Positions 21,847 through 41,377 of a DNA stretch of 44,843 bases are shown here, one piece after another (position 1 is the stretch's first letter; the number at the start of each line of letters is the position of its first letter). Made by a program: the position numbers and the translations under genes. Source of the stretch: Acidimicrobiales bacterium. GTDB lineage: Bacteria > Actinomycetota > Acidimicrobiia > Acidimicrobiales > CADCSY01. The stretch covers positions 1 to 44,843 of the forward strand of contig JBBSLC010000002.1 of the NCBI GenBank assembly GCA_038255685.1, given 5' to 3'. The notes under the pieces were generated by a model. That model searched no databases. It saw nothing but the letters and a program-made list of their open reading frames with translations, and was not told the origin of the DNA.

Positions 21847-23346
21847 TCACGCCCGGGCGCCGATCAGCGGCACCCTGATCTCGATCTCGGTGCCCGGCCC
21901 CCCGAACGCCGGCGCGTCGCCGTCGGGTCGGCTCCGCATCTCGATCGAGCCCTCGATCTGCGACGTCACGAGGCTGCGGACGATCGACAGCCCGAGCCCC
22001 TTCGAGGCCGACACCGAGAACCCGTCGGGAAGGCCGACGCCGTCGTCGACGACGCGCACGACGAGTGCGCCGCCGTCGTTCGACAGGTGGACCTCGACGT
22101 GGCCGTCCTCCATCCCCCTCGGCTCGGGGAAGGCGTGGTCGACGGTGTTCTGGAGCAGCTCGTTGAGCACGACCGCGAGCGGCGTGGCGATCCGGGCGGG
22201 GAGCTTGCCGGCGTCGCCGCTGACGGTGATGGCGATGCGGTGCTCGGGCGAGAGGAGGCCCTCCTCGACCATCCGCACGAGTGGCCGGACGATCTCGCTG
22301 AACGGGACGTCGTCGCCGACCTCTCGCGAGAGCGTCTCGTGCACGAGCGCGATGGCGCGGATGCGCCGGACTGACTCCTCGATCGCCGTCTTGGCCTCAG
22401 GCGACTCCAGCCGGCGACCTTGCAGTCGCAGCAGGGACGAGATCGTCTGGAGGTTGTTCTTCACCCGATGGTGGATCTCCCGGATCGTGGCGTCCATGGA
22501 GATGAGGAGCCGGTCTCGCCGCCGGAGCTCGGAGATGTCCCGCAGCAGCACGAGGGCACCGGTGACCTCACCGCTCACCAGGAGCGGGAGGCAGCGCACG
22601 AGGACGGTGACCTCTGGTCCCCGCTCGATCTCCTCGGTGACCGGTGCGCCGATGGCGAAGCTGGTCCGGACGGCGACCTCCTCGAGGCCGAGCTCGCTCA
22701 GCTTCATCCCCTCGGCGTTGGCGTGGACGCCGATGCGGTGGAGCGCCGAGACGGCGTTCGGCGAGGCGTACTCGACCCGGCCGTCGGCGTCGAGCACGAC
22801 GGCACCGTCGCCCACCCGCGGCGCCTCCTCCGATTCGGCGTCCTCGGTGGCGAAGGGGAACTCGCCGGTCCGCAACATCTCTGCGAACCGGTGGAACACC
22901 TCCACGTACATCGCTTCGAGCTCACCCGGCCGGCGCCCGATCGTCGGGACGGACTCCCGGGAGAGCACGGCGATGACCTCGTCGCCGAGGCAGACGGGGA
23001 CGCACAGCATCGAGACGCGCTCGTGCAGGGCGGACAGGTTGATCTCGCCCTCGACGATCTCGCCGGTGCGCAGCGCTCGTCCCACGAGCGGGCGGTCGGC
23101 GTCGTCGATGAGCGTCCCGACGTAGTCGCTGCGGTACAGCGTCTGGTTCGTCGTCGGCCGGACCTGGCCGGCCACCACGTACCGCCGCGCGTCGCCCGGA
23201 TCGGTGCGGGTGGGCACGAGGAGCAGGAGGTCGGCGAAGCAGAGGTCGGCGAGCGGGCCCCACGACGCGACGAGGCGCTGGAGGTGGCCGAGCCGCTGCT
23301 CGTCGAGGTCGGCGTGCTGGCGGACCAGCTCGGCGAGCGTCGCCAT
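21847..23346 (-). CDS. pdtaS: Soluble GAF-PAS sensor histidine kinase PdtaS
   Basis: HisKA_2 motif HHRVKNNLQTISSLLRLQ and a HATPase C-terminus. No TM segments, 499 aa, and a PdtaS-like N-terminus (LADLCFADLLLLV). Confidence 0.8.
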   Translation of the reverse strand: MATLAELVRQHADLDEQRLGHLQRLVASWGPLADLCFADLLLLVPTRTDPGDARRYVVAGQVRPTTNQTLYRSDYVGTLIDDADRPLVGRALRTGEIVEGEINLSALHERVSMLCVPVCLGDEVIAVLSRESVPTIGRRPGELEAMYVEVFHRFAEMLRTGEFPFATEDAESEEAPRVGDGAVVLDADGRVEYASPNAVSALHRIGVHANAEGMKLSELGLEEVAVRTSFAIGAPVTEEIERGPEVTVLVRCLPLLVSGEVTGALVLLRDISELRRRDRLLISMDATIREIHHRVKNNLQTISSLLRLQGRRLESPEAKTAIEESVRRIRAIALVHETLSREVGDDVPFSEIVRPLVRMVEEGLLSPEHRIAITVSGDAGKLPARIATPLAVVLNELLQNTVDHAFPEPRGMEDGHVEVHLSNDGGALVVRVVDDGVGLPDGFSVSASKGLGLSIVRSLVTSQIEGSIEMRSRPDGDAPAFGGPGTEIEIRVPLIGARA

Positions 23347-24233
23347 CAGGCCGGGGTCGGGGCGACCGCGATGGCGACCGGGCGGCGCTCGCGCCCTCGG
23401 TAGGCGGCGAGCTCGTCGTAGCCGGCGTCAGCGAGGAGCCGGGCGACGTCACCGCGGCGCTCCCCGACCCTGTCGCACCGGTGGGCATCGGTGGCGGTCG
23501 TCACCGGGACGCCGGCAGCGTGGAACCTGGCCAGCAGATCGGGAGCGGGGTACGCCTCGGCCGCCGGCTTCCGCCAGCCGTTGCTGTTGATCTCCGCCGA
23601 CATGCCGCTGCGCGCCGCAGCCTCGGCCATGCGGGCGTACCACTCGTCGGGGACCGCTGGCCTGCGCCCGGCGACCTTGCAGAGGTCGGGGTGGGCCAGC
23701 ACGTCGCACACCCCGGAGTCGGCCAGCTCGTCGAGGCAGTCGGCGTAGGCGTCCCACACGTCCTCGACGGCCCGGGCGTCCCACTCGGCCATGACGGCGT
23801 CGTCGCCGACGTTGTCGAAGCCCCACGCCCCGATCCAGTGCACCGACCCGAGCAAGACGTCGAAGGGGTAGCCCTCGAGCAGCTCGGCGACCTCGTGCAT
23901 GCGTCCGCGGTGGAAGTCGACCTCGAGGCCGAGCACGACGGGAAGGCCGGCGTCCTTGGCCGCCAGCACCACCTCGACGTAGTGGTCGAGGTCGGCACCG
24001 ACCTCGCTGTCCCAGAAGGTCGCCATCGCGTCGCGCACCGGGCTCGGCGGCTCCACCTCCCACCAACCGCCGAACACGGCGTCGGCCTGTCGGAACCGGT
24101 GCAGGTGCTCGGTCAGGGCGATCTCGACGACGCCTTGCGCCCGGGCCGCATCGCAGTACGCAGCGACCTGCTCGAGGGTGGCGTCGAGCGGTCGGGGCCC
24201 GTGCTCCCAGAGGTGCAGGTGGTAGTCGAGCAC
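23346..24233 (-). CDS. PHP-domain phosphoesterase (histidinol-phosphatase HisJ/HisK family)
   Basis: YHLHLW, TEHLH, GSVHW, AHPD and TATDAH metal-ligand motifs. Its stop shares a base with the pdtaS ATG. Confidence 0.75.
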   Translation of the reverse strand: MLDYHLHLWEHGPRPLDATLEQVAAYCDAARAQGVVEIALTEHLHRFRQADAVFGGWWEVEPPSPVRDAMATFWDSEVGADLDHYVEVVLAAKDAGLPVVLGLEVDFHRGRMHEVAELLEGYPFDVLLGSVHWIGAWGFDNVGDDAVMAEWDARAVEDVWDAYADCLDELADSGVCDVLAHPDLCKVAGRRPAVPDEWYARMAEAAARSGMSAEINSNGWRKPAAEAYPAPDLLARFHAAGVPVTTATDAHRCDRVGERRGDVARLLADAGYDELAAYRGRERRPVAIAVAPTPA

Positions 24234-26529: not shown

Positions 26530-27081
26530 CTAGGACCTGCGCCGGCGAGCGCTCCTGCGCTTCGAGACCCACAGACCGAGCGCGCCGCCGACGATGCCGA
26601 AGACGGCAGCGACGAGCAGGTTTGTCGTGTCGGATCCACCCTCGGCGCCGCCCGCCTCGGGCTCGTCCAGCGCTGCGGTGAGCGAGGTCGGCGTGCTCGG
26701 GTCGGTGACGGGGACCTCGATGGGGATCTCGGTCGTGCCCGGCGGGAAGGACGAGGAGACCTGGAGCGTCCACGGTCCGGACGAGTCGAGGTCGAGCGTC
26801 ACGGCGTACGCACCGGGCTCCCCTTGGCGCTCAGCGGGCGCGGCAGGGACCACCTCCCCGTCCGGACCCGTCGCCGCCACCTCGACGATCGCACCCTCAG
26901 CCGGATCGCCGTCGGCCTCGTGGGTGATGCGGATCCGGAGCACCACCCCACCCGGCGTCGTCTCGGTCACCTCCAACACCTCGAACACCGCCCCCCCGCC
27001 GTGGGCGCCGGCCGGACCGACAGGCCCACCGACCGCCACCACCACGGCCAGAACCACGAGGAGCAGCCGGAGCCGGCTCAC
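26530..27081 (-). CDS. Secreted Ig-like (FixH/YtkA-like) protein with C-terminal TM anchor and Arg-rich tail
   Basis: Signal peptide ending AGA-HGG, a beta-rich core (GAYAVTLDLDSSGPWTLQV), and a C-terminal LLVAAVFGIVGGALGLWV helix followed by SKRRSARRRRS. The GTG start overlaps the ArsA-like stop (GTGA). Confidence 0.6.
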   Translation of the reverse strand: MSRLRLLLVVLAVVVAVGGPVGPAGAHGGGAVFEVLEVTETTPGGVVLRIRITHEADGDPAEGAIVEVAATGPDGEVVPAAPAERQGEPGAYAVTLDLDSSGPWTLQVSSSFPPGTTEIPIEVPVTDPSTPTSLTAALDEPEAGGAEGGSDTTNLLVAAVFGIVGGALGLWVSKRRSARRRRS

Positions 27082-28244
27082 CGCCAGAGCTCCTCGCCCA
27101 TCCGCACCAGGCCGGCGAGGTCGAAGATGTCGCTCTCGAAGTACGGGACCGAGGCGATCACGTCCGGGGCGGCGGCGAGCTCCGATCGCTGCGTCCGCTC
27201 CCGCTTCGCTGCCACCTGGAAGTTGAGGAAGCTCTCCCCGACCTCCTGGAGGACCCGTGCGACCATGACCGGCTCCCCGATCGCGTCGGGGATGGCCGTG
27301 GCCAGGTCCTCGGCCTCGACGGTGAGGCGCGTGGCGGTGCTCGCAGCGCCCTCGTCGAGCAGGTACGACGGGAGCACCTTGTTCAGCACGAGCGCCCCGA
27401 GGTGCAGGCGCTTGGCGGCGAGGGCGCCGATGAAGAAGTCCGCCTCGTGCGCGGGGCCGGACTCGAGGGTGCTCACGACCACGAAGGTGGTCCGGCGGTC
27501 CTCGAGGACGCGCTCGACCGCTCTCGCCCGCTCGACGAACCCGTCGTACATGGACTGGAAGAGGATGAAGAACTCGGCGATGTCCTGGAGGAACGCCGAG
27601 CCGAGGATGCGATCGGCCACCTGGTAGAACGGCCGCGAGGCCGCGTTGACCAGCCGGCTCCGATACGGCACAAGCAGCCATCGCAGCAGCCGGCTGGAGA
27701 AGAACTCGGCCATGCGCTCGGGCGCCTCGAGGAAGTCGATGGCGTTGCGGGTGGGTGGCGTGTCGACGATGATCAGGTCGTAGGTGCCGCTCGCGTGCAG
27801 CTCGTAGAGCCGCTCCATGGCGATGTAGTCGTGGCTCTGGACGAACTTCCCGGTGACGTTCTGGTAGAGCGGGTTGGCGAGGATCGCGTCGCGCGTCTTC
27901 GCATCGGGTGCGTGCCTGCGGACGAGGTCGTCCCAGCTCTGCTTGGTGTCGAGCATCGCCGCCCAGAGCTCGCCCCGTGGCTCGAGGCCGGCTCCGGCGA
28001 ATGCCTCGTTGGGGACCCGCACCTCGACGTTGCCGAACTGCTCGAGGCCCATGGCGGTGGCCAGGCGCCGTGCCGGATCGACGGTGAGGACGAGCACCTT
28101 GCCCCCGAGGTGCACGGCCGCCATGGCACCGAGCGCCGCCGCCGTCGTCGTCTTGCCCACCCCACCCGAGCCACAGGTGACCACGATCTCCTTCGCCGCG
28201 AGCAGCTGCTCCAGCGTCGTCGGCGACGGGCCACGCTCGCTCAT
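27078..28244 (-). CDS. ArsA/Get3-family P-loop ATPase (second of pair)
   Basis: Deviant Walker A GSGGVGKTT and the ArsA-type fold. It is paired with a paralog, as for the Rv3679/Rv3680-type genes of actinobacteria. Confidence 0.85.
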   Translation of the reverse strand: MSERGPSPTTLEQLLAAKEIVVTCGSGGVGKTTTAAALGAMAAVHLGGKVLVLTVDPARRLATAMGLEQFGNVEVRVPNEAFAGAGLEPRGELWAAMLDTKQSWDDLVRRHAPDAKTRDAILANPLYQNVTGKFVQSHDYIAMERLYELHASGTYDLIIVDTPPTRNAIDFLEAPERMAEFFSSRLLRWLLVPYRSRLVNAASRPFYQVADRILGSAFLQDIAEFFILFQSMYDGFVERARAVERVLEDRRTTFVVVSTLESGPAHEADFFIGALAAKRLHLGALVLNKVLPSYLLDEGAASTATRLTVEAEDLATAIPDAIGEPVMVARVLQEVGESFLNFQVAAKRERTQRSELAAAPDVIASVPYFESDIFDLAGLVRMGEELWR

Positions 28245-28303
28245 GTCGTCCGCTCTCGGCCTGCGGCCGGGCCGCTCTGGCCACGCTCGCTGCGCTCGCT
28301 CAT
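28241..28303 (-). repeat. MIRU-like intercistronic repeat, copy B (20-codon mini-ORF MSERSERGQSGPAAGRERTT)
   Basis: 60/63 nt identical to 15251-15313. Its ATG overlaps the ArsA-1 stop (ATGA, 28300-28303) and its TGA overlaps the ArsA-2 ATG (ATGA, 28241-28244). Confidence 0.9.
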
Positions 28304-29247
28304 GTCAGCTCGCCAGCGAGGGCGTCGGCGATCTGGCGGGTGGCACGCAGGCCGTGGGTGCGGTTGAAGAGCTCGGGCACGTAGACGACGTCGAGGCCGT
28401 CGGGCACGCCCTCTCGGAGACGGGCGAGGTGGCCTGCTCGCGTCCGCCGCAGCGTGACCGCCAGGCGCGCGCCTTCGAGGACCGGTCCGATGCCTGCTCC
28501 GAGCGGGCCCTCCAGCTCCCCCGCTGCGTGGGCGTCGCGGAGCCGCTCGTAGGTCTCCTCCTCGCCCCGGCCGAACAGCTCGGGCAGCACGCGGTTCACG
28601 ATCACGGCGGCGACGTCGACCTTCGTCTCCTCAAGTCGCTCGATGAGCTCGAGCGACTCGGTGACGGGCATCTCCTCGGGCGCAGCGACGATCACCACGC
28701 CGGTGGTGGCCGGGTCCCGCAGGATCTCGAGGATCCAGCCGGTCTGCTCACGGATGAGGCCGACCGACACGAGATCGTTGATGGCCTGCGGTGCGTTGAG
28801 CTGGCCGACGATGTGGCCTGACGCCGGAGCGTCGACGATCACCAGGTCGTAGTGGCGCTCTCGCACCTCCCAGGCGAACTTGCCGACGATGACGATCTCC
28901 TTGACGCCCGGGGCGGCGTTGGCGATGAAGTCGAACGTGCGCGCCAGCGGCCCGATGCGGGCGAGGAAGGGGATGCGCACCTGCAGCCGCAGGTACTCCC
29001 GCAGCGACGCCTCGGTGTCCATCGACATGGCGAAGACGCCTGGCTGCACCTCCCGCTCCTCGAAGGAGGTGGGACCCGTCTCGAGGACGTCAGCAAGGTT
29101 GCCCTTGGCGTCGACCTCGCACACGAGCACGCGCTTGCCCTGCTGCGCTGCGAGGACGGCGAGGGCGGCAGCCATCGTCGTCTTGCCGACGCCTCCCTTG
29201 CCCGTGACGAAGAGGAGGCGTCGCTCGAGCAGCGGCACGCCGGCCAT
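28300..29247 (-). CDS. ArsA/Get3-family P-loop ATPase (first of pair)
   Basis: Walker A GKGGVGKTT and the ArsA-type fold. Confidence 0.85.
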   Translation of the reverse strand: MAGVPLLERRLLFVTGKGGVGKTTMAAALAVLAAQQGKRVLVCEVDAKGNLADVLETGPTSFEEREVQPGVFAMSMDTEASLREYLRLQVRIPFLARIGPLARTFDFIANAAPGVKEIVIVGKFAWEVRERHYDLVIVDAPASGHIVGQLNAPQAINDLVSVGLIREQTGWILEILRDPATTGVVIVAAPEEMPVTESLELIERLEETKVDVAAVIVNRVLPELFGRGEEETYERLRDAHAAGELEGPLGAGIGPVLEGARLAVTLRRTRAGHLARLREGVPDGLDVVYVPELFNRTHGLRATRQIADALAGELT

Positions 29248-29254
29248 GGAGCGG

Positions 29255-29491
29255 CTACGCGCTGCCGAAGCCGATGCGGCGCTCGTCGCGAGGGCTGCCG
29301 ATCTCGACGTACGCGACCTTCGCGACGGGGATCGCGACCTGGCGACCCTTGCGATCCGTGAACCACAGGACCCCCGTGTCCGATCCGAGGGCGGTCTCCA
29401 CGTCAGCCCGCACCTTGGCGGGGTCCGCCTCGTCTCCGAGCTCGACGTCGATCTCCTTGGCCGTGTAGGTCACACCGATGCGAACGTCCAC
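29255..29491 (-). CDS. DUF3107 family protein
   Basis: VDVRIGVTYTAKEIDVEL...WFTDRKGRQVAIPVAKVAYVEIG pattern. GTG at 29491 is preceded by GAGGAGA. Confidence 0.7.
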   Translation of the reverse strand: MDVRIGVTYTAKEIDVELGDEADPAKVRADVETALGSDTGVLWFTDRKGRQVAIPVAKVAYVEIGSPRDERRIGFGSA

Positions 29492-29614
29492 GCGCTGGTC
29501 TCCTCGAGGGGGTGGTCTGGTTGAACCGACCGCCATCGTACGCGTCCCACGGTGCGGTTCCCGCCGGCCGTCGGTCGGCGACGCCGGGGCGACGCGCTGC
29601 TAGGTTGCGCGTGC

Positions 29615-30193: not shown

Positions 30194-30943
30194 GTGACGG
30201 CGGTGCCAGGGTGCGCGGCCCACTACGGTTCGGCCATGGGGGAAGGGGACGTGCAGGTCGACCGCGCCACCGGCCTGCCGGTGTCATCGGTGGACCTGCT
30301 CCGCCGACGCATCATCAACGTCGTCGGCCACGAGCTGCGGACGCCGGTGACGACGGTCCGCGGGCTCGCCGAGGCGCTCGCTGCGGACGATGCTGACGAC
30401 GACGAGCGGCGCGCCTTGCTGGCCGCACTCGTGCGCGCCACGACGAGGCTGGAGTCGCTCGTCGACGAGGTGCTCCTCGCCTCGTCCATCGGCACGGCCA
30501 TGCCGGTCGGCGCCGTCTCGTCCGTGGACCTCGTCGCAGCAGCACGCGCCGCGTGGGCGGAGGTCGGCGTCACCGACGACCTCGACGTCGCGGGCGCGGC
30601 GATCGCCCTGGCACAGCCGGCCGTCGTGCACCGGGTGCTCGCGCAGGTCCTCGCCAACGCTGCGAGCCACGGTGCCGCCCCGTACGGGGCCGTGGCCACC
30701 TCCTCCCCGGCGCTCGCCTGCATCGCCATCTCGAGCGGGGGCGACGTGCTGCGCCCGGACGAGCTTGCGCTTGCGACCGAAGCCTTCTTCCGAGGTGAAG
30801 CAGCGGTGACCAACGCACCTGGCCTCGGACTCGGCCTCGCCGTCGCTCGCACCCTGGTCGAGGGCAGTGGAGGGACGATCGGCGTCGAGGGCGCCGAGGG
30901 TGGCGGGATGGTGGTCACCATCACGCTGCCGGTCGCGACGTGA
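30194..30943 (+). CDS. Soluble histidine kinase core (DHp + CA only, no sensor domain)
   Basis: H-box VGHELRTPVTTV, N-box-like LANAASHG and G2 box GLGLGLAVA. The G1 box reads ISSGGDV instead of DxGxG. An alternative start is the ATG at 30236. Confidence 0.7.
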   Translation: MTAVPGCAAHYGSAMGEGDVQVDRATGLPVSSVDLLRRRIINVVGHELRTPVTTVRGLAEALAADDADDDERRALLAALVRATTRLESLVDEVLLASSIGTAMPVGAVSSVDLVAAARAAWAEVGVTDDLDVAGAAIALAQPAVVHRVLAQVLANAASHGAAPYGAVATSSPALACIAISSGGDVLRPDELALATEAFFRGEAAVTNAPGLGLGLAVARTLVEGSGGTIGVEGAEGGGMVVTITLPVAT

Positions 30944-31317
30944 GCACCGGCACGCCGCTTCGCATCGTCGTCGTCGACGACGAGCCCGATGTGCGGCTCC
31001 TCCTCGGCTTCCAGCTCCGCATCGCCGGGATGGAGGTGGTGGGTGAGGCCGGCGACGGCGCCACGGCCATCGACGTGTGCGCCGAGGTCAAGCCGGATGC
31101 CGTCGTGTTCGACCTGCTCATGCCGGGCATGAGCGGCTTCGCTGCCATCCCCGCCCTGCTCGAGGCGCAGCCGGGCATCGGCGTGGTCGCCTACACCGCG
31201 GTCGCCGGCGACTTCGTCCGCGCCGAGATGGGTCGCCTCGGCGTCGCCCTCGTCCTCAAGTCAGGTGATCCCTCTCCGCTGGTCGACGCCATCAAGGGCT
31301 GCGTCAGCCAGGTGTGA
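30940..31317 (+). CDS. Stand-alone receiver-domain response regulator
   Basis: DD pair (VVVDDE), acceptor Asp in VVFDLLMPGMSG, Thr (AYTA) and Lys (LKSG). The GTG overlaps the kinase stop (GTGA). Confidence 0.85.
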   Translation: MSTGTPLRIVVVDDEPDVRLLLGFQLRIAGMEVVGEAGDGATAIDVCAEVKPDAVVFDLLMPGMSGFAAIPALLEAQPGIGVVAYTAVAGDFVRAEMGRLGVALVLKSGDPSPLVDAIKGCVSQV

Positions 31318-32734
31318 CGACCGGCTCGGGGCGAGTCACCGGACGAGCGAGCGCACCGAGCTGACCCGACGTGGGCTCTGCACAGCAGAACCACGCCTCG
31401 GTGAGCCGGGGGCGAGCGCCCCTCCACGAGTCCACCGCCACAGGTGCCCGACCGGCTGCGGCGTAGATCGCGCTGGCCACCGCCGAGAACGTCTCGCCCG
31501 GCTCCGTGCCCGCCGCCTCGTGGGCCTCGACAAGCGCCGCGAGCGCGGCTTGGAGCGAGTCGACGGCGGGGTCCGCCGCTCGCCAGCGGTGGCCGAGAGC
31601 AGCGATGTCGTAGTCACCGAGGTGGGGAGCGAGCTCGGGGTGGGCGAGGAGCAGCGACCCCTCTGGCAGCAGCAGGCGGATCGTCCAGTGCACCGGCTCG
31701 ATGTTCGGCGCGAGGTCGTGCGCGATCGCGAAGTCGACGAGATCGGCCATGTCCTCGACCGTGGTCCACGGTGTGAACGGCAGGAGGGACGGTCGCAGCT
31801 CGATGCCGTGCGTCCGGAGGAGCGCGACGGCACCGGCTGCGTCAGCGGCCGTGTGCCCCTTGTCCAGCCTGGCGAGGATCTCGTCGTTGACGCACTCGAC
31901 GGCTGAGGTGACGAACAGCAGGCCCTGTGCTGCGAGCTCGGCCCAGATGTCGGTGTGGCGCAGCACGAGCTCGACCTTCGTGGTGATGTCGAAGGTGAGC
32001 TCCGGGTGACGCTCGTGCACGGCGCGCACGACGCGCAGTGAGTGCTGCAGGCCGTTGAGGAAGTCGGGATCGCCGAACGTCAGATGGCGGGCACCGGCAG
32101 CCACCAGCACGTCGACGTCGGCGAGGAGGACCTCGAGCTCCACGATGCGGATGCGTCCGTCGTAGACCGTCGGCACCGGGCAGTGGCGGCAGCGGAAAGT
32201 GCACCCGTGGCTCGCCTCGACGTACCCGGCCAGGCGCTCCTCGCCTCCGACGCTGAGCTTGGCGTACTGCTCGAGGGGCGGCAGGAGGTGGCGGGCAGGC
32301 AGTCGGAAGCCACCCCTCCCGAGGTGGACGCTCACTGCTCCCTCCTCGCCGAGGGGCACGGCGGCACCCGATGCGAGGTCGTCGACCCACGCCACCAGCG
32401 CCTGCTCGTACTCACCCGCGATCACGCGGTCGGCCAACCGGCCGGCCGTCGCGTCGCGCCCCACGGGGGCGTAGAGGCCGTAGAAGCAGATGGGCAGGTC
32501 GGGGCGACGAGCCCGCGCACCCGTGGCGACGGAGACAGCGAGGCGCATGGCGGTGTGCATGGGGACGGAGAGCGCGAGCACGTCGACGTCGTCGAGCAGG
32601 GCCTCGTCCCACGGCTCGACCGACAGGTCGTGGCACCGGACGTCGTGTCCGGCGGCGAGCAGCGCGGCCGCCGGCGACGCCACGTGCAGCGGCTGGTGCC
32701 CGAGCTCGTAGGTGGAGACGAGCAGGGCGCGCAC
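31304..32734 (-). CDS. B12-binding-domain radical SAM protein with C-terminal CCAEP tail
   Basis: N-terminal cobalamin-binding-like domain, radical SAM motif CTFRCRHC (CX3CX2C), and the tail WFCCAEPT at 31373-31387 (complement). Confidence 0.85.
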   Translation of the reverse strand: MRALLVSTYELGHQPLHVASPAAALLAAGHDVRCHDLSVEPWDEALLDDVDVLALSVPMHTAMRLAVSVATGARARRPDLPICFYGLYAPVGRDATAGRLADRVIAGEYEQALVAWVDDLASGAAVPLGEEGAVSVHLGRGGFRLPARHLLPPLEQYAKLSVGGEERLAGYVEASHGCTFRCRHCPVPTVYDGRIRIVELEVLLADVDVLVAAGARHLTFGDPDFLNGLQHSLRVVRAVHERHPELTFDITTKVELVLRHTDIWAELAAQGLLFVTSAVECVNDEILARLDKGHTAADAAGAVALLRTHGIELRPSLLPFTPWTTVEDMADLVDFAIAHDLAPNIEPVHWTIRLLLPEGSLLLAHPELAPHLGDYDIAALGHRWRAADPAVDSLQAALAALVEAHEAAGTEPGETFSAVASAIYAAAGRAPVAVDSWRGARPRLTEAWFCCAEPTSGQLGALARPVTRPEPVVTPG

Positions 32735-32785
32735 GGGGGCGAGGCTACCGACGACGCACCGGGCAGGGGCCGACGTCGGCGATCG

Positions 32786-34009
32786 TCACGATGGGGCGAT
32801 GACCACGTCAAGGCTCGCCTGCGCGGCCCGGAGCGAGGCCTCGACCTCCGACGGGCCGTCGCCACGGGCGAAGACGAAGCCGAGGTAGCGGTCCCCTTCG
32901 GGCAGGGCGCGGACCGGACGACCGGCGAGGACGGTGATCTCGAGGCCGACGACCCCGGGCACCGAGCGGGCAGCCTCGATGCCGTCGATCCGCTCGAGGG
33001 TCCCGGTGCGCGGGATCGGGATCATGAGCACACCGGCAGCGGCGCGCTCTCGGTCGAGATCGTCGAGGGGGAGGTCGAGGGCGTGGCGGAGGATCACCTC
33101 TTCGAGGCTGATGCCGGCCCCGAAGCGCAACGTGCGCGCGCACAGCCCGCCGATGGAGCGCGCTGCCACCTCGAGGACGACGACGTCGCCGTCGGGGGTG
33201 AGGCGGGCCTCGGCGTGGACCGGGCCGTCGACGAGCCCGATCGCCGCAGCGGCTTCGGCGACGGCCTCGTGGAGCCGCTCGAGCAGCGCCGAGGGATGGC
33301 GGGACGGCGTGACGTAGAGCGTCTCCTCGAAGTAGGGGCCGTCGAGGGGGTCGGGCTTGTCGAAGGTGGCGAGCACGTGCAGCGCGCCATCGCGCAGGAG
33401 TGCCTCGACCGCGACCTCGACCCCGGCGACGAAGGCCTCGACGACGACGGGAGCCTCGGGTCGGGCACCGGCGCTGGTCGCGATGGCTCGGACCCGATCG
33501 GCGACGGTGACGGCCTCATCGGCGGTGTCGGCCCTGATGACGCCCCTGCTCCCCGAGAGCGAGGTCGCCTTCACGACGCACGGGAGCCCGACTGCGGCGG
33601 CGAGCGCAGCGACGTCGTCGCCGGGTCTGGCCAGCCGGTGTGGGGGTTGGACCAGCCCGGCGTCGCCCATGAGCCGTCGCATGGCGTCCTTGTCACGGGT
33701 GGCGGCGACGGCGGCCGTCGGGTTGTGGCGCAGGCCGAGGCGCGCCGAGGCGGTGGCGGCAGCGACCACACCCTGCTCGTCGACGGCGACGATGGCGGCG
33801 ACGGGCGCCCGACGGTGGAGGGCCTCGATGGCGTCGGCCGCTGCGGCCGGGTCGGCGAGGGGGACGACGAGCGCTCGGTCACCCATGGCCGCGGCCATCG
33901 CCTGCGCCTCCTCCGAGCCGACGACGACCTCCACACCGAGGGCCGAGGCGGCGTCGACGAAGTCGGGCGCTCGGTACGTCGCCGTCGGGAGCAGCAGGAG
34001 GACGCGCAC
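32786..34009 (-). CDS. ATP-grasp enzyme, L-amino-acid-ligase-like (407 aa)
   Basis: Pre-ATP-grasp domain, an ATP-grasp core (VVKATSLSGSRGV, VVVEAFVAG) and a ligase-type C-terminal domain. GTG at 34009 gives the typical VRVLLLLP N-terminus. Confidence 0.75.
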   Translation of the reverse strand: MRVLLLLPTATYRAPDFVDAASALGVEVVVGSEEAQAMAAAMGDRALVVPLADPAAAADAIEALHRRAPVAAIVAVDEQGVVAAATASARLGLRHNPTAAVAATRDKDAMRRLMGDAGLVQPPHRLARPGDDVAALAAAVGLPCVVKATSLSGSRGVIRADTADEAVTVADRVRAIATSAGARPEAPVVVEAFVAGVEVAVEALLRDGALHVLATFDKPDPLDGPYFEETLYVTPSRHPSALLERLHEAVAEAAAAIGLVDGPVHAEARLTPDGDVVVLEVAARSIGGLCARTLRFGAGISLEEVILRHALDLPLDDLDRERAAAGVLMIPIPRTGTLERIDGIEAARSVPGVVGLEITVLAGRPVRALPEGDRYLGFVFARGDGPSEVEASLRAAQASLDVVIAPS

Positions 34010-34064
34010 CGGGCCAGTGTGGCTGAGCCGCACGCACTCGGGGTCGTGGTCGTAGGCTCCACGT

Positions 34065-34724
34065 GTGGACGACGCACCTGCACCTTCCCTCCTCACCATC
34101 ACGCCGCCAGCGTTCAAGAAGGTCATGGAGATCCGCGCCGGCGAACCGGACGGCGACGCGCTCGCGCTCTGGCTCGAGGTCTCCGGAGCGGCGAAGGGCG
34201 AGTACACCTACGACGTCTACTTCGACGTCGTCGACGCGGCAGCGGCGGAGGACGCCGTGCTCCACCACGACGACCTCACGATCGTCATCCCCGTCGGCAG
34301 CGTCGAGCGGCTCACCGGCGCCACCCTCGGCATGTCCCGTGACCTGCTGAACCCGGGGCTCTCGGTCACGAACCCCAACCGACCGCCTGCACCCCCGTCC
34401 CCGAGCCCGGCCGTCGGCGCGGCCGCCATGCCCGTCGGTGACCTCAGCGGTGACGTCGCCCAGCGGATCCTCCAGGTGCTCGAGAACCAGATCAACCCCA
34501 GCATCGCCAGCCACGGCGGGCGGGCCGACCTCGTCGCCGTCGAGGAGGAGACCGCCTACCTGCGGCTCTCCGGGGGGTGCCAGGGGTGCGGCATGGCGTC
34601 GGTGACGCTCGGCCAGGGCATCGAGGTCGCGATCAAGGACCAGATCCCCGAGATCACCAACGTGGTGGATGTGACGGATCACGCCGAGGGCGCGAACCCC
34701 TACTACGAGGCTGCGAAGAAGTAG
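34065..34724 (+). CDS. NfuA-like Fe-S biogenesis protein (degenerate A-type domain + NifU C-terminal domain)
   Basis: C-terminal NifU motif GGCQGCGMA. The N-terminal HesB/IscA-like domain lacks the cluster Cys residues. Confidence 0.75.
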   Translation: MDDAPAPSLLTITPPAFKKVMEIRAGEPDGDALALWLEVSGAAKGEYTYDVYFDVVDAAAAEDAVLHHDDLTIVIPVGSVERLTGATLGMSRDLLNPGLSVTNPNRPPAPPSPSPAVGAAAMPVGDLSGDVAQRILQVLENQINPSIASHGGRADLVAVEEETAYLRLSGGCQGCGMASVTLGQGIEVAIKDQIPEITNVVDVTDHAEGANPYYEAAKK

Positions 34725-34771: not shown

Positions 34772-35503
34772 GTGACCTCCTCTGACTGGGGCGCCCTCGG
34801 TGCCGCCCTCACCGCCGCGCTGCACCCGACTGCGCCCCCCATCGCCATCACCTTCGGCGTCGAGGCGCCGACGGGCGTCCCCGCCCACGACGCCCCGATG
34901 CCGCCGCCGCTGGCGGACGGGCGCACCGGGCGCGTGCCTGCCGGCTGCGCCTTCTGGATGCAGGCCGTCGACACCACGTTCACGACCGTCGCCGCCGACC
35001 ACGGGAACTGCAGCGTGGGCTCGATGACCCACGGCTTCGCCACGCTCGACGAGGTCGCCGGCAACGACGACGTCGCCGCCCTCCTCGGATCAGGCTGGGT
35101 GACGATGGAGGACGTGCCGAACATCCCGGTGGTCACCGAGCGCCCTGGCGTGGTGACCTACGGCCCGCTGCGCGAGACGCCGGTGGACCCCGACGTGGTG
35201 CTCGTGCGCCTCACGGCGAAGTCGCTCATGGTGCTCTCCGATGCCCTCCCCGGGCTGCGCGTCGAGGGCAAGCCGCAGTGCCACATCGTGGCGGTGGCCA
35301 AGGAGCAGGGTGAGGTGGCGGCCAGCGTCGGCTGCATGCTCAGCCGGGTGCGCACCGGCATGCCGAGCACCGAGACCACGTGCGCGATCCCGGCAGCCAA
35401 GCTGGCCGAGGTCGTCGCTGCGGTGGAGCGGACCGCAGCGATCGACGCCCAGGTCGCCGCCTACGCCGCCGAGGACGCCCGCCGCTTCGACGTGAGGACC
35501 TGA
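34772..35503 (+). CDS. DUF169 family protein
   Basis: AGCAFW...HGNCSVG pattern and about 243 aa. In-frame GTG at 34772. Confidence 0.6.
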   Translation: MTSSDWGALGAALTAALHPTAPPIAITFGVEAPTGVPAHDAPMPPPLADGRTGRVPAGCAFWMQAVDTTFTTVAADHGNCSVGSMTHGFATLDEVAGNDDVAALLGSGWVTMEDVPNIPVVTERPGVVTYGPLRETPVDPDVVLVRLTAKSLMVLSDALPGLRVEGKPQCHIVAVAKEQGEVAASVGCMLSRVRTGMPSTETTCAIPAAKLAEVVAAVERTAAIDAQVAAYAAEDARRFDVRT

Positions 35504-37145: not shown

Positions 37146-38294
37146 TCAGACGATCTTCAGCTCGCGATGGCGCCGACGGGTCGGCGCCAGGTCGTCGTCG
37201 ATGCGGCGTGCGATCTCGTCGAAGGCCGATGCCGCCTCACCCTTGGGGTCGGAGACCTTGATGGGGACGCCGATGTCTCCGCCCTCCCGCAGCGCGGGCA
37301 CGAGCGGCACCCGGCCGATGAGCGGCGCGCCGAGGCGCTCGGCGAGCACGTCGCCCCCGCCTGCGCCGAACAGGTCGTAGCGCTGCCCGTCGTCGCCGGT
37401 GAACCAGCTCATGTTCTCGATGACACCGTGGACCGGGATCTTCACCTGCGGGCTCTGGAACATCAGACCGGCTCGCTGGGCGACGCGCTGCGCAGCGGGT
37501 TGGGGCGTCGTCACGATGTAGGCCTCCGATCGCGGCAGGAAGCCAGCGAGCGAGAGCGAGATGTCGCCCGTCCCCGGCGGCAGATCGACGACGAGGTAGT
37601 CGGGTTCGCCCCAGTAGAAGTCGGTGAGGAACTGCTCGAGCGCCTTGTGCAGCATGGGCCCACGCCACACGACGGGCTGATCGTCCCGGACGAAGAAGCC
37701 GATCGAGGCGAGGGTGACGCCGTGGGCCTCGGGCGGGATGATCATCGAGTCGTCGAGGATCGAGGGCGGGCGGGTGATGCCGAGCATCGCCGGGATCGAG
37801 AAGCCCCAGACGTCCGCGTCGACGACAGCGACGCGCCGGCCCCGCTCGGCGAGCGCGATCGCCACGTTCACCGTCACCGACGACTTGCCCACGCCACCCT
37901 TTCCCGATGCGATCAGCAGGACCCGGGTCCGCGAGCCAGGGTCGGCGAACGACACGGCCCGACCCTCGGCGTGGCCCTGGGCGGGCGCCGAGCCTGCGGT
38001 CGAGCCGGGGTCCCCGTGCAGGCGGAGGCGGATCGCCCTGCGCTCGTCGTCGTCCAGGTCGTCGAGCTCGACCCGGACGTCCTCCACCCCGGGCACGGCG
38101 AGGAGGCGCTCGCGGAGGCGTCCCTCGAGCTGCTCGCCGGGCGAGTCGGGGAGGAGCCGGGAGACGACGACCTCCACCCGCCTCCGCTTGATCGACAGCC
38201 GCCGCACGAGCCCCAGCTCGACGATGCTGCGGTGCAGCTGGGGGTCCTCGACTGCTGCGAGGGCCGCTCGAACCTGGTTCTCATCCACGGACAT
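37146..38294 (-). CDS. Mrp/NBP35/ApbC-family P-loop ATPase with N-terminal DUF59-like domain, cysteine-free
   Basis: Walker A SGKGGVGKSS and the ENMS motif are present, but the CxxC site reads ENMSWFTGDDGQRYDLFG. There is no Cys anywhere in the 382 aa. Confidence 0.8.
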   Translation of the reverse strand: MSVDENQVRAALAAVEDPQLHRSIVELGLVRRLSIKRRRVEVVVSRLLPDSPGEQLEGRLRERLLAVPGVEDVRVELDDLDDDERRAIRLRLHGDPGSTAGSAPAQGHAEGRAVSFADPGSRTRVLLIASGKGGVGKSSVTVNVAIALAERGRRVAVVDADVWGFSIPAMLGITRPPSILDDSMIIPPEAHGVTLASIGFFVRDDQPVVWRGPMLHKALEQFLTDFYWGEPDYLVVDLPPGTGDISLSLAGFLPRSEAYIVTTPQPAAQRVAQRAGLMFQSPQVKIPVHGVIENMSWFTGDDGQRYDLFGAGGGDVLAERLGAPLIGRVPLVPALREGGDIGVPIKVSDPKGEAASAFDEIARRIDDDLAPTRRRHRELKIV

Positions 38295-38428
38295 CGGGGA
38301 CTGTCGCCTCGTTGCTCTCGCTCGCTGGGGTGCGCGTCGCCGGCACCCGGGGGGGTCACCTGCGTGGGGGTCCTGCGCAGGCACCGGAGCACAGGAGCCC
38401 GACGGAGGACCCCCGGTACACTACCGAC

Positions 38429-39239: not shown

Positions 39240-40364
39240 GTGAGCCGGCACTACCTCGATCACGCGTCGACGTCGCCCACCCGCCCGGAGGCGGTTGCAG
39301 CGATGCTCCCGTGGTTCGCTACCGCCGCCGACCCCGGCCGGGTCCACAGCGAGGGCCACGCCGCCCGGGTGGCGGTCGAGGTGGCTCGCGAGCAGGTGGC
39401 CCAGCTGCTCGGGGCACGCCCTCGCGAGGTGGTCTTCACGAGCGGCGCGACCGAGTCCGTCATCACCGCCACGTGGATGGCGGCCGAGCGGGGCGATCAC
39501 GTGGTGCTCCCTGCCGTCGAGCACTCCTGTGTGCGGGAGGCGGCCGCTCGTCACCGCACGACGGTGGTCGGCGTGGACCGCACCGGGCGCGTCGAGCCCG
39601 CAGCGCTCCTTGCCGCCGTCCAGCCGGACACCGCCCTCGTGCACCTGCAGTGGGCCAACCACGAGGTCGGCACGCTCCAGCCCGTCGCCGAGGTGGTGGC
39701 GGCGTGTCGCGAGCGGGGCGTGCTCGTGCACGTCGACGCCGCCCAGGCCGCCGGTCACGTCGCCGTCGCCTTCGACGAGCTCGGGGCCGACCTGCTGAGC
39801 GTGAGCGCCCACAAGCTCGGCGGACCTCCCGGCGTCGGCGCGCTGCTCGTGCGACGGGGGCTGCGCCTCCGTCCGCTCATGGTCGGTGGCGACCAGGAGC
39901 GCGCCCGGCGCGCCGGCTACGAGAACGTGCCCGGCATCGTCGGCTTCGGGGCGGCGGCAGCCGAGCTGCACGGCGACCGGCTCGGAGGAGAGGCCGCAGC
40001 GGCCGCTGCCCAGGTCGCTCGGGTGGTCGACGCAGCCGGAGCAGGGGCGCTCGGGCCCGACGTCGCGCTGTTGGGTGTCCCTGACGCTCGCGGCCGGCTC
40101 CCCCAGCTCGCCTGTCTCGCCGTCGAGGGCGTTGAAGCGGAGCCGGTGCTGCTCGGGCTCGACCAGGCCGGCGTCGCCGTGCACTCGGGCTCGTCGTGCT
40201 CGTCCGAGGCGCTCGAGCCGTCCCCGGTGCTCGAGGCCATGGGGGTCGACGCCGAGCGCTCCTTGCGGGTGAGCGTCGGATGGAGCACCACCGATGCAGA
40301 CGTCGACGCCTTCCTCACCGCCATGCCCGACGTCGTCGCCCGCCTGCGCGCGCTGCGCAGCTGA
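39240..40364 (+). CDS. Class I cysteine desulfurase (IscS/NifS-like)
   Basis: PLP lysine in SAHKLGGPPGVG and catalytic loop HSGSSCSSE. In-frame GTG at 39240. Confidence 0.85.
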   Translation: MSRHYLDHASTSPTRPEAVAAMLPWFATAADPGRVHSEGHAARVAVEVAREQVAQLLGARPREVVFTSGATESVITATWMAAERGDHVVLPAVEHSCVREAAARHRTTVVGVDRTGRVEPAALLAAVQPDTALVHLQWANHEVGTLQPVAEVVAACRERGVLVHVDAAQAAGHVAVAFDELGADLLSVSAHKLGGPPGVGALLVRRGLRLRPLMVGGDQERARRAGYENVPGIVGFGAAAAELHGDRLGGEAAAAAAQVARVVDAAGAGALGPDVALLGVPDARGRLPQLACLAVEGVEAEPVLLGLDQAGVAVHSGSSCSSEALEPSPVLEAMGVDAERSLRVSVGWSTTDADVDAFLTAMPDVVARLRALRS

Positions 40365-40441
40365 ACCGGCCGAGCACCGGAAGCCGCCGAGCAGTAGGTT
40401 CGGCGCCGGTCGGCGGACCTTCTCTCGTCAAGGAGCTGCTC

Positions 40442-41377
40442 ATGGCCATCCGCTACCGCAACCTCGTCTACGACAGCAGCCGTTGGGACGGCTTCGAGCT
40501 CCGCGACGACGACATCATCATCAGCACGCCCCCGAAGTGCGGCACCACGTGGACCCAGATGCTGTGCGCCATGCTCGTGTTCGACGCCACGACGTTCGAT
40601 CGGCCGCTGGCCCACATCTCGCCATGGCTCGACATGCAGACCCGCAGCCTCGAGAGCGTCCGGGCAGAGCTCGATGCCCAGACCCACCGCCGCTTCATCA
40701 AGACCCACACGCCGCTCGACGGGCTGCCGTGGGACGACCGCGTGACGTACCTCTGCGTCGGCCGGGACCCTCGCGACGTGGCCATCTCCTGGGACCACCA
40801 CTGGGAGAACATGGACGCAGACGCCCTCATGGCCATCCGAGCGCAGGCTGTGGGCCTCGACGACCTGGCCGAGCTGGGCCCGCCACCGCCGCCGCCGTCC
40901 GACGACCCCCTCGAGCGCTTCTGGCAGTGGGCCGAGCAAGCAGAGGGCTTCGGACCCTCCCTCGAGCGGATCCTGGACCACTTCCGGACGTTCTGGGAGC
41001 AGCGAGACCAGCCCAACGTCGCGCTGTTCCACTACAGCGACCTCTCGGCCGACCTGCCGGGACAGCTTGCTCGCCTCGCCGACGTGCTGTCGATCCCGAT
41101 GGCGCCCGAGCGCATCGACGAGCTGGCAGCGGCGGCCACCTTCGCCAACATGAAGGGTCGGGCGACCGAGCTCGCGCCGAACTCCGACCAGGGCTTCTGG
41201 CGGAGCACCGAGGGCTTCTTCCACAGGGGTGCAAGCGGCCAGTGGCGCGACCTCCTCGACGAGGCAGGGCTGCAGCGCTACGGCGACCGGGTCGCCGAGC
41301 TGGCTGCCCCCGACCTCGCGGCGTGGGCCCACGACGGGTGGCTCGGCACGGCGCCCACCCCTTCGGCGCCGACCTGA
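40442..41377 (+). CDS. PAPS-dependent sulfotransferase domain protein
   Basis: 5'-PSB motif PKCGTTW and 3'-PB motif RDPRDVAIS. The ATG is preceded by AAGGAG. Confidence 0.8.
   Translation: MAIRYRNLVYDSSRWDGFELRDDDIIISTPPKCGTTWTQMLCAMLVFDATTFDRPLAHISPWLDMQTRSLESVRAELDAQTHRRFIKTHTPLDGLPWDDRVTYLCVGRDPRDVAISWDHHWENMDADALMAIRAQAVGLDDLAELGPPPPPPSDDPLERFWQWAEQAEGFGPSLERILDHFRTFWEQRDQPNVALFHYSDLSADLPGQLARLADVLSIPMAPERIDELAAAATFANMKGRATELAPNSDQGFWRSTEGFFHRGASGQWRDLLDEAGLQRYGDRVAELAAPDLAAWAHDGWLGTAPTPSAPT

Follow-up and report, generated by a model that had tools for sequence, protein, structure and literature searches.

A radical SAM enzyme with a CCAEP tail, related to ArsL and encoded in a conserved module with an amino-acid-ligase-type ATP-grasp protein and NfuA, in an Acidimicrobiales bacterium

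What is made by a radical S-adenosylmethionine (SAM) enzyme that carries two adjacent cysteines on its C-terminal tail and whose gene directly follows that of a putative amino acid ligase? The question is raised by a stretch of 44,843 nucleotides (nt) from an Acidimicrobiales bacterium (assembly GCA_038255685.1, contig JBBSLC010000002.1, positions 1 to 44,843; hereafter the window, G+C content approximately 71%). In an original prediction, made from the sequence without database searches, two genes at 31304-34009 had been described as an uncharacterised cassette of an ATP-grasp enzyme and a B12-binding radical SAM enzyme. The cassette was re-examined here with domain calls based on Pfam gathering scores and NCBIfam curated cutoffs. 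Relatives of the radical SAM protein were taken from a scan of one genome per species, which returned more than 580 relatives and of which the best 80 loci were kept, and from metagenomes (80 loci), giving 160 loci in total. The nearest relatives were found to belong to metagenome-assembled genomes of Acidimicrobiales, with 80-82% protein identity.

The radical SAM gene (31304..32734, reverse strand) encodes a protein of 476 amino acids (aa) that consists of a Rossmann-like N-terminal domain, a radical SAM core (Pfam Radical_SAM) and a C-terminal tail. Its translation contains the motif CTFRCRHC (residues 178-185; 32180..32203, reverse strand), a CxxxCxxC arrangement in which C178, C182 and C185 are the ligands of the SAM-binding [4Fe-4S] cluster and are invariant in three alignments of relatives. 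Towards the C-terminus lies the tail motif WFCCAEPT (residues 448-455; 31370..31393, reverse strand), encoded by TGG TTC TGC TGT GCA GAG CCC ACG. Within this motif C450 is specified by TGC (31385-31387) and C451, the position occupied by selenocysteine (Sec) in many homologues, by TGT (31382-31384). Both motifs and the two Cys codons are as originally read, and the protein family that had been named as being defined by such a tail exists and includes the window protein: NF040546 (CUAEP/CCAEP-tail radical SAM (seleno)protein) matches it with 552.9 bits (E = 5.5e-166; cutoff 500). The alignment runs end to end, residues 4-460 corresponding to model positions 2-467 of 468. With a score far beyond chance, the window protein is a full-length Cys-Cys member of this curated family, having its defining tail and no sequence-level difference from it. 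The C-[C/U]-A-E-P tail is kept in 78 of the 80 genome loci, the remaining two being without a readable tail. The family is large, comprising thousands of clusters at 90% identity, with members from Acidimicrobiia, Thermoleophilia and Chloroflexota as well as from marine contigs of low GC. The sole mention of NF040546 found in the literature (Haft) calls it uncharacterised and does not include the gene neighbourhood described here.

A clue to function is provided by the second-best NCBIfam match, the model of ArsL (NF040542; 280.4 bits over residues 4-400, cutoff 450), the third-best model reaching 43 bits. Reciprocally, the NF040546 model gives 284-345 bits for proteins above the ArsL cutoff, while genuine ArsL proteins score 490-656 bits on NF040542. 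Because of the distance between 280 and 43 bits and of these reciprocal scores, the NF040546 and ArsL families are considered an isolated pair and, as far as sequence comparison can tell, ArsL is the only close characterised relative of the NF040546 family. A joint alignment showed 32-34% identity between the window protein and ArsL proteins over the whole length. The likeness extends to the Rossmann-like N-terminal domain, the CxxxCxxC core and the C-terminal tail, where C450 is invariant and C450-C451 align with the Cys-Cys of the ArsL tail RCCLKC, the third Cys of ArsL falling on the Pro of CCAEP. Relative to ArsL, the CUAEP family possesses an additional segment of approximately 45 residues before the tail. 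This homology, including the aligned Cys-Cys pair, had been overlooked in the original prediction.

ArsL forms the C-As bond when the antibiotic arsinothricin is biosynthesised. It has been reconstituted in vitro without cobalamin and was described to cut the C-gamma-S bond of SAM, giving methylthioadenosine (MTA) and a 3-amino-3-carboxypropyl (ACP) species that ends on arsenic. The arsenic is held by all three tail cysteines, and deletion or mutation of the tail leads to loss of arsenic binding and of product, with SAM cleavage being kept (10.1101/2024.02.01.577332; 10.64898/2026.04.29.721666). The window protein should nevertheless not be named ArsL, because its score lies below the cutoff of 450, its tail is CCAEP in place of the three-Cys CCxxC, thus offering two soft ligands rather than three, and its gene does not stand in an ars context. 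The partners of ArsL are ArsM and genes of the ars operon, whereas those of the window module are an ATP-grasp ligase, NfuA and a DUF169 protein. The neighbours in the window included no identified arsM or other resistance gene of an ars operon, nor were arsM or ars-operon genes present among the recurrent neighbour clusters of the 160 loci. With many CUAEP/CCAEP members also carrying selenocysteine, the family differs from the ArsL/ArsM system in its tail chemistry, in its optional selenocysteine and in its partners. C83 was considered as a third soft ligand replacing the third Cys of ArsL and was rejected, as it is kept in close relatives and lost in distant members. Though not ArsL by name, the window enzyme may well work like ArsL, judging from their homology.

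The selenocysteine forms bear on what the tail could do. The second Cys codon is TGA in 43 of the 78 genome loci with a readable tail, and the frame runs on into a conserved AEPT..Q..L. It had been suggested that such homologues be checked for a selenocysteine insertion sequence (SECIS), and a covarying hairpin was found in them: a 7-bp stem, GAGGRCC-AGUUN-GGYCCUC, is located approximately 12 nt 3' of the UGA in Sec-type loci. Changes on both sides were observed in five of the seven pairs, with 92% of cells paired; none of 500 shuffles reached the observed covariation score and sliding the partner columns abolished the signal. From this pattern the hairpin is classed as a SECIS-like element. 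It was seen in L003 (e.g. 9372-9440), L009-L018 and other Sec-type loci, and has been lost from the window copy, which is of the Cys form (TGT). The use of Sec in second place suggests that this residue is a soft, reactive ligand or a redox centre, not a structural cysteine. According to Haft, the Cys-Sec motif is rare, its other occurrences being linked to mercury and organometallic proteins.

The gene of the ATP-grasp protein (32786..34009, reverse strand; 407 aa) lies 51 nt upstream of the radical SAM gene and is co-directional with it. Its start was placed at the GTG at 34009, because homologues are 405-413 aa long and the starts of tblastn alignments agree with this position. Two longer forms are available, the mechanical open reading frame (ORF) to 34207 (473 aa) and a 437-aa form in the protein collection (P0271); neither was preferred, since both overlap the start of nfuA. 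Pfam domains ATP-grasp_4 (90.9 bits), LAL_C2 (64.7 bits) and ATPgrasp_N (41.4 bits) were identified, all above their cutoffs, and the closest solved structures are all L-amino acid ligases (LALs), namely BL00235 (3VOT, E = 1.8e-31, 113 bits) followed by BacD. These results uphold the assignment of the protein to the L-amino-acid-ligase type with a three-domain layout. The layout with LAL_C2 is shared with BL00235, BacD/YwfE, RizA and DdaF, ligases of which several build dipeptide antimetabolites; the window protein differs from them in its low similarity (113 bits to 3VOT). It reached no NCBIfam equivalog, and the public names of its homologues do not go beyond 'ATP-grasp domain-containing protein' and 'biotin carboxylase'. 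BL00235 produces Met-Gly and Met-Met, and therefore its donor is a gamma-substituted 2-aminobutyrate, an amino acid of the ACP type. By analogy, this Met donor would be a weak fit to an ACP-type amino acid as the substrate of the window ligase.

The ATP-grasp and radical SAM genes were found to be a conserved unit and not a feature of this genome only, since the former is immediately upstream and co-directional in 55 of the 64 genome loci with at least 1400 nt of upstream sequence, with gaps of 12-143 nt. On its other side, at a distance of 55 nt in the window, the ATP-grasp gene is flanked by the divergent gene of an NfuA-type Fe-S carrier. This arrangement, in which nfuA is divergent and adjacent, occurs in 53 of 61 loci, making the Fe-S donor, previously noted as a suggestive neighbour, a true partner. 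Both genes are found beside the radical SAM gene in 56 of the 61 loci with enough flank, and the Cys form (25/26) and the Sec form (30/34) are alike in this respect. Unsupervised clustering of the neighbouring ORFs of the genome loci revealed no further widely conserved gene. Among distant metagenome relatives (30-63% identity to the window protein) the module genes occur in other orders: DUF169 > ATP-grasp > radical SAM > NfuA, radical SAM > NfuA > DUF169, radical SAM > NfuA > ATP-grasp and, convergently, NfuA > radical SAM > ATP-grasp. A natural ATP-grasp–radical SAM fusion of 850 aa was also identified (L161, 6001-8553; GCA_004366215.1, contig SIRY01000078.1). It contains a divergent enzyme of the tail family (tail WFCCAAPTS, 318 bits on NF040546) and has a divergent NifU gene directly upstream. 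Taken together, the conserved adjacency, the shuffled order and the fusion show that the genes are functionally coupled across lineages. No conserved small ORF, as would be expected of a precursor peptide, was found in or beside the module in the 160 loci; for this reason a small-molecule product rather than a ribosomally synthesised and post-translationally modified peptide (RiPP), as had been supposed from the window, remains the better guess.

The NfuA-type carrier (34065..34724, forward strand) comprises a Cys-free A-type N-terminal domain and an Nfu domain with CQGC (Pfam NifU, 74.6 bits, residues 136-201). In having a degenerate A-type domain with an Nfu CxxC, the layout of the E. coli type, and in standing beside a radical SAM client, it resembles the NfuA that acts with LipA or MiaB; it differs in scoring 101.9 bits on NCBIfam TIGR03341, the equivalog cutoff of which is 269. 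On synteny alone we infer that its role is dedicated rather than housekeeping. The intergenic region between the ATP-grasp gene and nfuA (34010..34064, 55 nt) presumably holds both promoters, and the equivalent spacer measures 33-346 nt in 53 loci; a scan of the divergent spacer for the sigma-70 consensus gave no match.

A further gene, on the same strand as nfuA and 47 nt downstream (34772..35503, forward strand; GTG at 34772), encodes a 243-aa protein with Pfam DUF169, and the same 243-aa protein is present in the protein collection. It had been passed over in the original prediction and is a recurrent fourth, less consistent, member of the module, with linkage to the radical SAM gene seen in 10 of the 80 genome loci and 9 of the 80 metagenome loci, in several orders. 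The conserved module in the window, in the favoured reading a biosynthetic one, is arranged as DUF169 <- NfuA / ATP-grasp -> radical SAM. Cys 59, 80, 170 and 188 of the DUF169 protein are invariant. Its AlphaFold2 (AF2) model is confident (predicted local distance difference test, pLDDT, 87.5), and searches of the PDB gave no significant fold neighbour (best E = 0.13, template modelling score, TM, <=0.24) and no sequence match. DUF169 has been drawn beside hgcAB and merR of Nitrospina in a 2019 preprint (10.1101/648329).

One other fusion involves the tail itself. P0154, a member of NF040546 with 623 bits (JGI sample 3300047160, 8.3-kb contig), possesses a MerB (alkylmercury lyase) domain after the CCAEP tail, and a second, stand-alone merB-like gene is present on the same contig. 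The MerB domain of this fusion has no match in the 160 loci or in the window, and MerB was therefore rejected as a general partner and is regarded as a single hint. In the literature searched, no description was found of the SECIS element, of the fusions or of the neighbourhood of ligase, NfuA and DUF169.

The reading that we favour, tentatively and as a possibility short of probable, is that ACP is transferred in the manner of ArsL to an acceptor of thiophilic character, and that the product is then ligated into a dipeptide. The [4Fe-4S] cluster would cleave the C-gamma-S bond of SAM, and the resulting ACP fragment, released together with MTA, would be joined to an acceptor, soft and thiophilic, that is bound by the Cys-Cys or Cys-Sec pair of the flexible C-terminus. 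As two ligands are available compared to the three of ArsL, the acceptor is probably not plain arsenite; candidates would be a trivalent organoarsenical (e.g. methylarsenite), Sb(III), Hg(II), or a species of sulfur, selenium or tellurium. Such a transfer would yield a gamma-substituted 2-aminobutyrate, resembling methionine or arsinothricin, and a dipeptide would arise when the ATP-grasp ligase couples it to another amino acid. NfuA would install or repair the cluster, and DUF169, with its four invariant Cys, may deliver the acceptor. Whatever in this scheme goes beyond homology and synteny, we infer.

Pairs of soft ligands are known to perform such capture in other proteins. Vicinal Cys pairs capture Hg(II) in MerA and MerT. 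In MerA (Cys-Cys) and in thioredoxin reductase (GCUG) a soft-ligand pair is borne on a flexible C-terminal segment and is used in thiophilic capture or electron shuttling. The folds of these proteins are unrelated to that of the CCAEP-tailed enzymes, and the resemblance of the tails is one of analogy, not homology. Trivalent organoarsenicals are bound by sites of two Cys, the adjacent Cys98-Cys99 of ArsI among them, and two of the four cysteines of ArsM suffice to methylate methylarsenite (PMC6138428). The ArsI pair is likewise adjacent and likewise belongs to an unrelated fold, being an analogue and not a homologue of the tail. A wider proposal, that the CUAEP/CCAEP enzymes would constitute a second, much larger ArsL-type branch in which ACP is transferred to an acceptor other than inorganic arsenite (e.g. 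methylarsenite, antimony, mercury or selenium) on the Cys-Cys/Cys-Sec tail and the ligase makes a dipeptide, is regarded as rather doubtful.

Several observations weigh against an ArsL-like transfer followed by ligation. The ACP chemistry is proposed by homology alone, there being no known sequence feature that decides between cleavage of the C-gamma-S and the C5'-S bond, and literature searches for CUAEP or CCAEP returned no functional study of any NF040546 member. The tail is modelled by AF2 with moderate confidence (pLDDT 83 for residues 441-450 and 61 for residues 451-460). In a clade with 40-49% identity to the window protein, a partner was present within 6 kb in only 3 of the 11 loci with good flanks; the ligase is therefore either not needed everywhere or encoded elsewhere. 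The ATP-grasp fusion and the MerB fusion are each represented by one sequence on one contig, and no ars, mer or selenium-metabolism gene is conserved beside the module. Finally, the module is widely distributed and includes no gene for export or self-resistance, which fits a housekeeping role better than an antibiotic.

The main rival, a real if unlikely alternative, is canonical 5'-deoxyadenosyl (5'-dA) chemistry on a dipeptide or conjugate made by the ligase, which would be epimerised, dehydrated or rearranged. The tail would then be the donor of an H-atom or electron, redox-active like the GCUG of thioredoxin reductase, in which Sec is likewise placed beside Cys on a flexible C-terminal tail. 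Enzymes of PF04055 overwhelmingly make 5'-dA radicals, Cys H-atom donors occur in radical SAM epimerases, and the ATP-grasp gene is first in the commonest operon order. The predicted structure also agrees with this alternative. The AF2 model of the radical SAM protein has a mean pLDDT of 89.2 and a predicted TM score (pTM) of 0.89, and its best fold match in the PDB by Foldseek is AprD4 (6FD2, TM 0.66-0.68), a radical SAM diol dehydratase dependent on 5'-dA, the Rossmann-like N-terminal domain of which does not bind cobalamin. The B12 enzymes OxsB and TsrM are next. AprD4, however, has 18% identity to the window protein and is without a Cys-Cys tail. On NCBIfam models ArsL is the closer of the two, with 280 bits compared to 21 bits for AprD4 (cutoff 500), and the Cys-Cys of the window protein lies at the position of the arsenic-binding Cys-Cys of ArsL.

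A second alternative, which we judge improbable, is the insertion of sulfur or selenium into the substrate or product of the ligase in the manner of LipA, MiaB and RimO. The tail would carry a persulfide or selenosulfide, or a cluster would be sacrificed and rebuilt by NfuA. The NfuA linkage is the most persistent of the module (56/61 loci, and shuffled orders), and NfuA is known to restore the clusters that LipA and MiaB sacrifice. MiaB and RimO were among the Foldseek matches, at TM 0.50-0.54, and in approximately 20 of the 80 genome loci (e.g. L076, 9444-9809, reverse strand) the radical SAM gene is met at its 3' end by a convergent DsrE/TusD-like gene of 121 aa, a hint of trafficking of sulfur or selenium. 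This gene is, however, absent from the window, and its match to PF02635 is below the Pfam cutoff (21.8 vs 22.7 bits). Three further conserved Cys that could ligate an auxiliary cluster are also lacking, C83 not being conserved in distant members, and the homologous tail of ArsL binds no cluster.

Of comparably low probability is a protein or peptide substrate, be it NfuA, DUF169, the enzyme's own tail or a precursor peptide from another locus. Pairs of ATP-grasp and radical SAM proteins do occur in RiPP pathways, and NfuA and DUF169 are encoded close by. Set against this are the lack of a conserved small ORF in the 160 loci and the presence in the ATP-grasp protein of a LAL-specific C-terminal domain, its nearest structures being ligases of free amino acids.

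It is very improbable that the enzyme is cobalamin-dependent (class B) and methylates or rearranges the ligated amino acid, as originally predicted: Pfam B12-binding (PF02310) does align with residues 5-115 and OxsB, TsrM, MgmA, CysS and TokK are among the fold matches, but the Pfam score of 31.5 bits is just below the gathering score of 32.1, class B models (HpnR, PhpK, TsrM-type and others) reach 17-43 bits, their cutoffs being 360-650, the window has no match to a cobalamin riboswitch or to any other Rfam family, ArsL, the nearest characterised family, is active without cobalamin, AprD4 is the top fold, and a 2026 review groups AprD4 and the ArsL homologues, within this sequence neighbourhood, as not binding cobalamin (PMC12931638). 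B12-dependent methylation by the window enzyme appears unlikely because its N-terminal domain resembles that of cobalamin-free AprD4.

Other genes of the window surround the module. A histidine kinase gene and a receiver gene (30194-31317, forward strand) converge on the radical SAM gene. The kinase (249 aa) contains HisKA and HATPase_c only, with no sensor domain, while the receiver (30940-31317, forward strand; 125 aa, Response_reg) overlaps the kinase gene by 4 nt and, at its other end, shares 14 nt with the 3' end of the radical SAM gene. This layout, as well as the presence of a DUF2064 gene, was confirmed as first described; the suggestion that these neighbours are meaningful did not hold, the histidine kinase recurring in 0, the receiver in 3 and DUF2064 in 1 of the 80 related loci, and they are considered incidental. 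The match of the DUF2064 protein to TIGR04282 ('arsenosugar glycosyltransferase') is weak (43.5 bits, cutoff 134). Two tandem ArsA/Get3-type ATPases with DUF3107 (27078-29536, ATPases 27078-29247, reverse strand) resemble a housekeeping actinobacterial block, and an Mrp/ApbC-type Fe-S carrier ATPase (37146-38384, reverse strand; FeS_assembly_P and NUBPL/ParA) is encoded 2.4 kb from nfuA; the ArsA-like ATPases, DUF3107 and Mrp were each found in 1 of the 80 related genome loci and were rejected as partners. A sulfotransferase gene (40196-41377) has a counterpart adjoining the MerB fusion gene, which is taken as coincidence, as a sulfotransferase recurs in no locus. A PdtaS-type histidine kinase (21847-23346, reverse strand; GAF_PdtaS, PAS, HisKA_2 and HATPase_c) adjoins a PHP-domain gene (23346-24233). 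Promoter, terminator, Rfam and tRNA scans of the window gave no matches.

Among the relatives, two further gene arrangements were observed. A flavin-reductase-like gene (HpaC/StyB-type) lies just downstream of the radical SAM gene in L094, L100, L130 and L131 (marine, 32-34% G+C) and in L110, and L082, L098 and L111 have a member of this family on the opposite strand, 1.5-2 kb downstream. The flavin-reductase-like gene follows the radical SAM gene where no ATP-grasp or NfuA gene is nearby, and its product could be an electron donor. In L107, L115, L138, L140 and related loci, a clade of 70% G+C with the tail TESQLGSVEREA, the radical SAM gene is positioned between an enoyl-CoA-hydratase-like gene and, downstream, a set of three genes for resistance-nodulation-division (RND) efflux. 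The RND permease of this clade has similar scores on multidrug and CusA/CzcA models, both below cutoff, and is thus uninformative as to metals.

By annotation, the radical SAM gene is an ordinary member of a curated family, and its module is conserved across soil actinobacteria. The family is nevertheless common and easily tested, and it stands beside a radical SAM reaction that ranks among the most unusual; the ligase, NfuA and DUF169 form with the radical SAM enzyme a defined set of four genes. If the chemistry of ArsL were used here with a different acceptor, carbon-heteroatom bond formation by radical SAM enzymes would be extended, one of the rare Cys-Sec selenoproteins would find an explanation, and a new non-proteinogenic amino acid, together with a dipeptide made from it, would be predicted. 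Were the CUAEP/CCAEP enzymes in fact a second ArsL-type branch, an organometal(loid) or organochalcogen dipeptide would represent an unseen class of natural product, or a route of detoxification, that is widespread in soil Actinomycetota.

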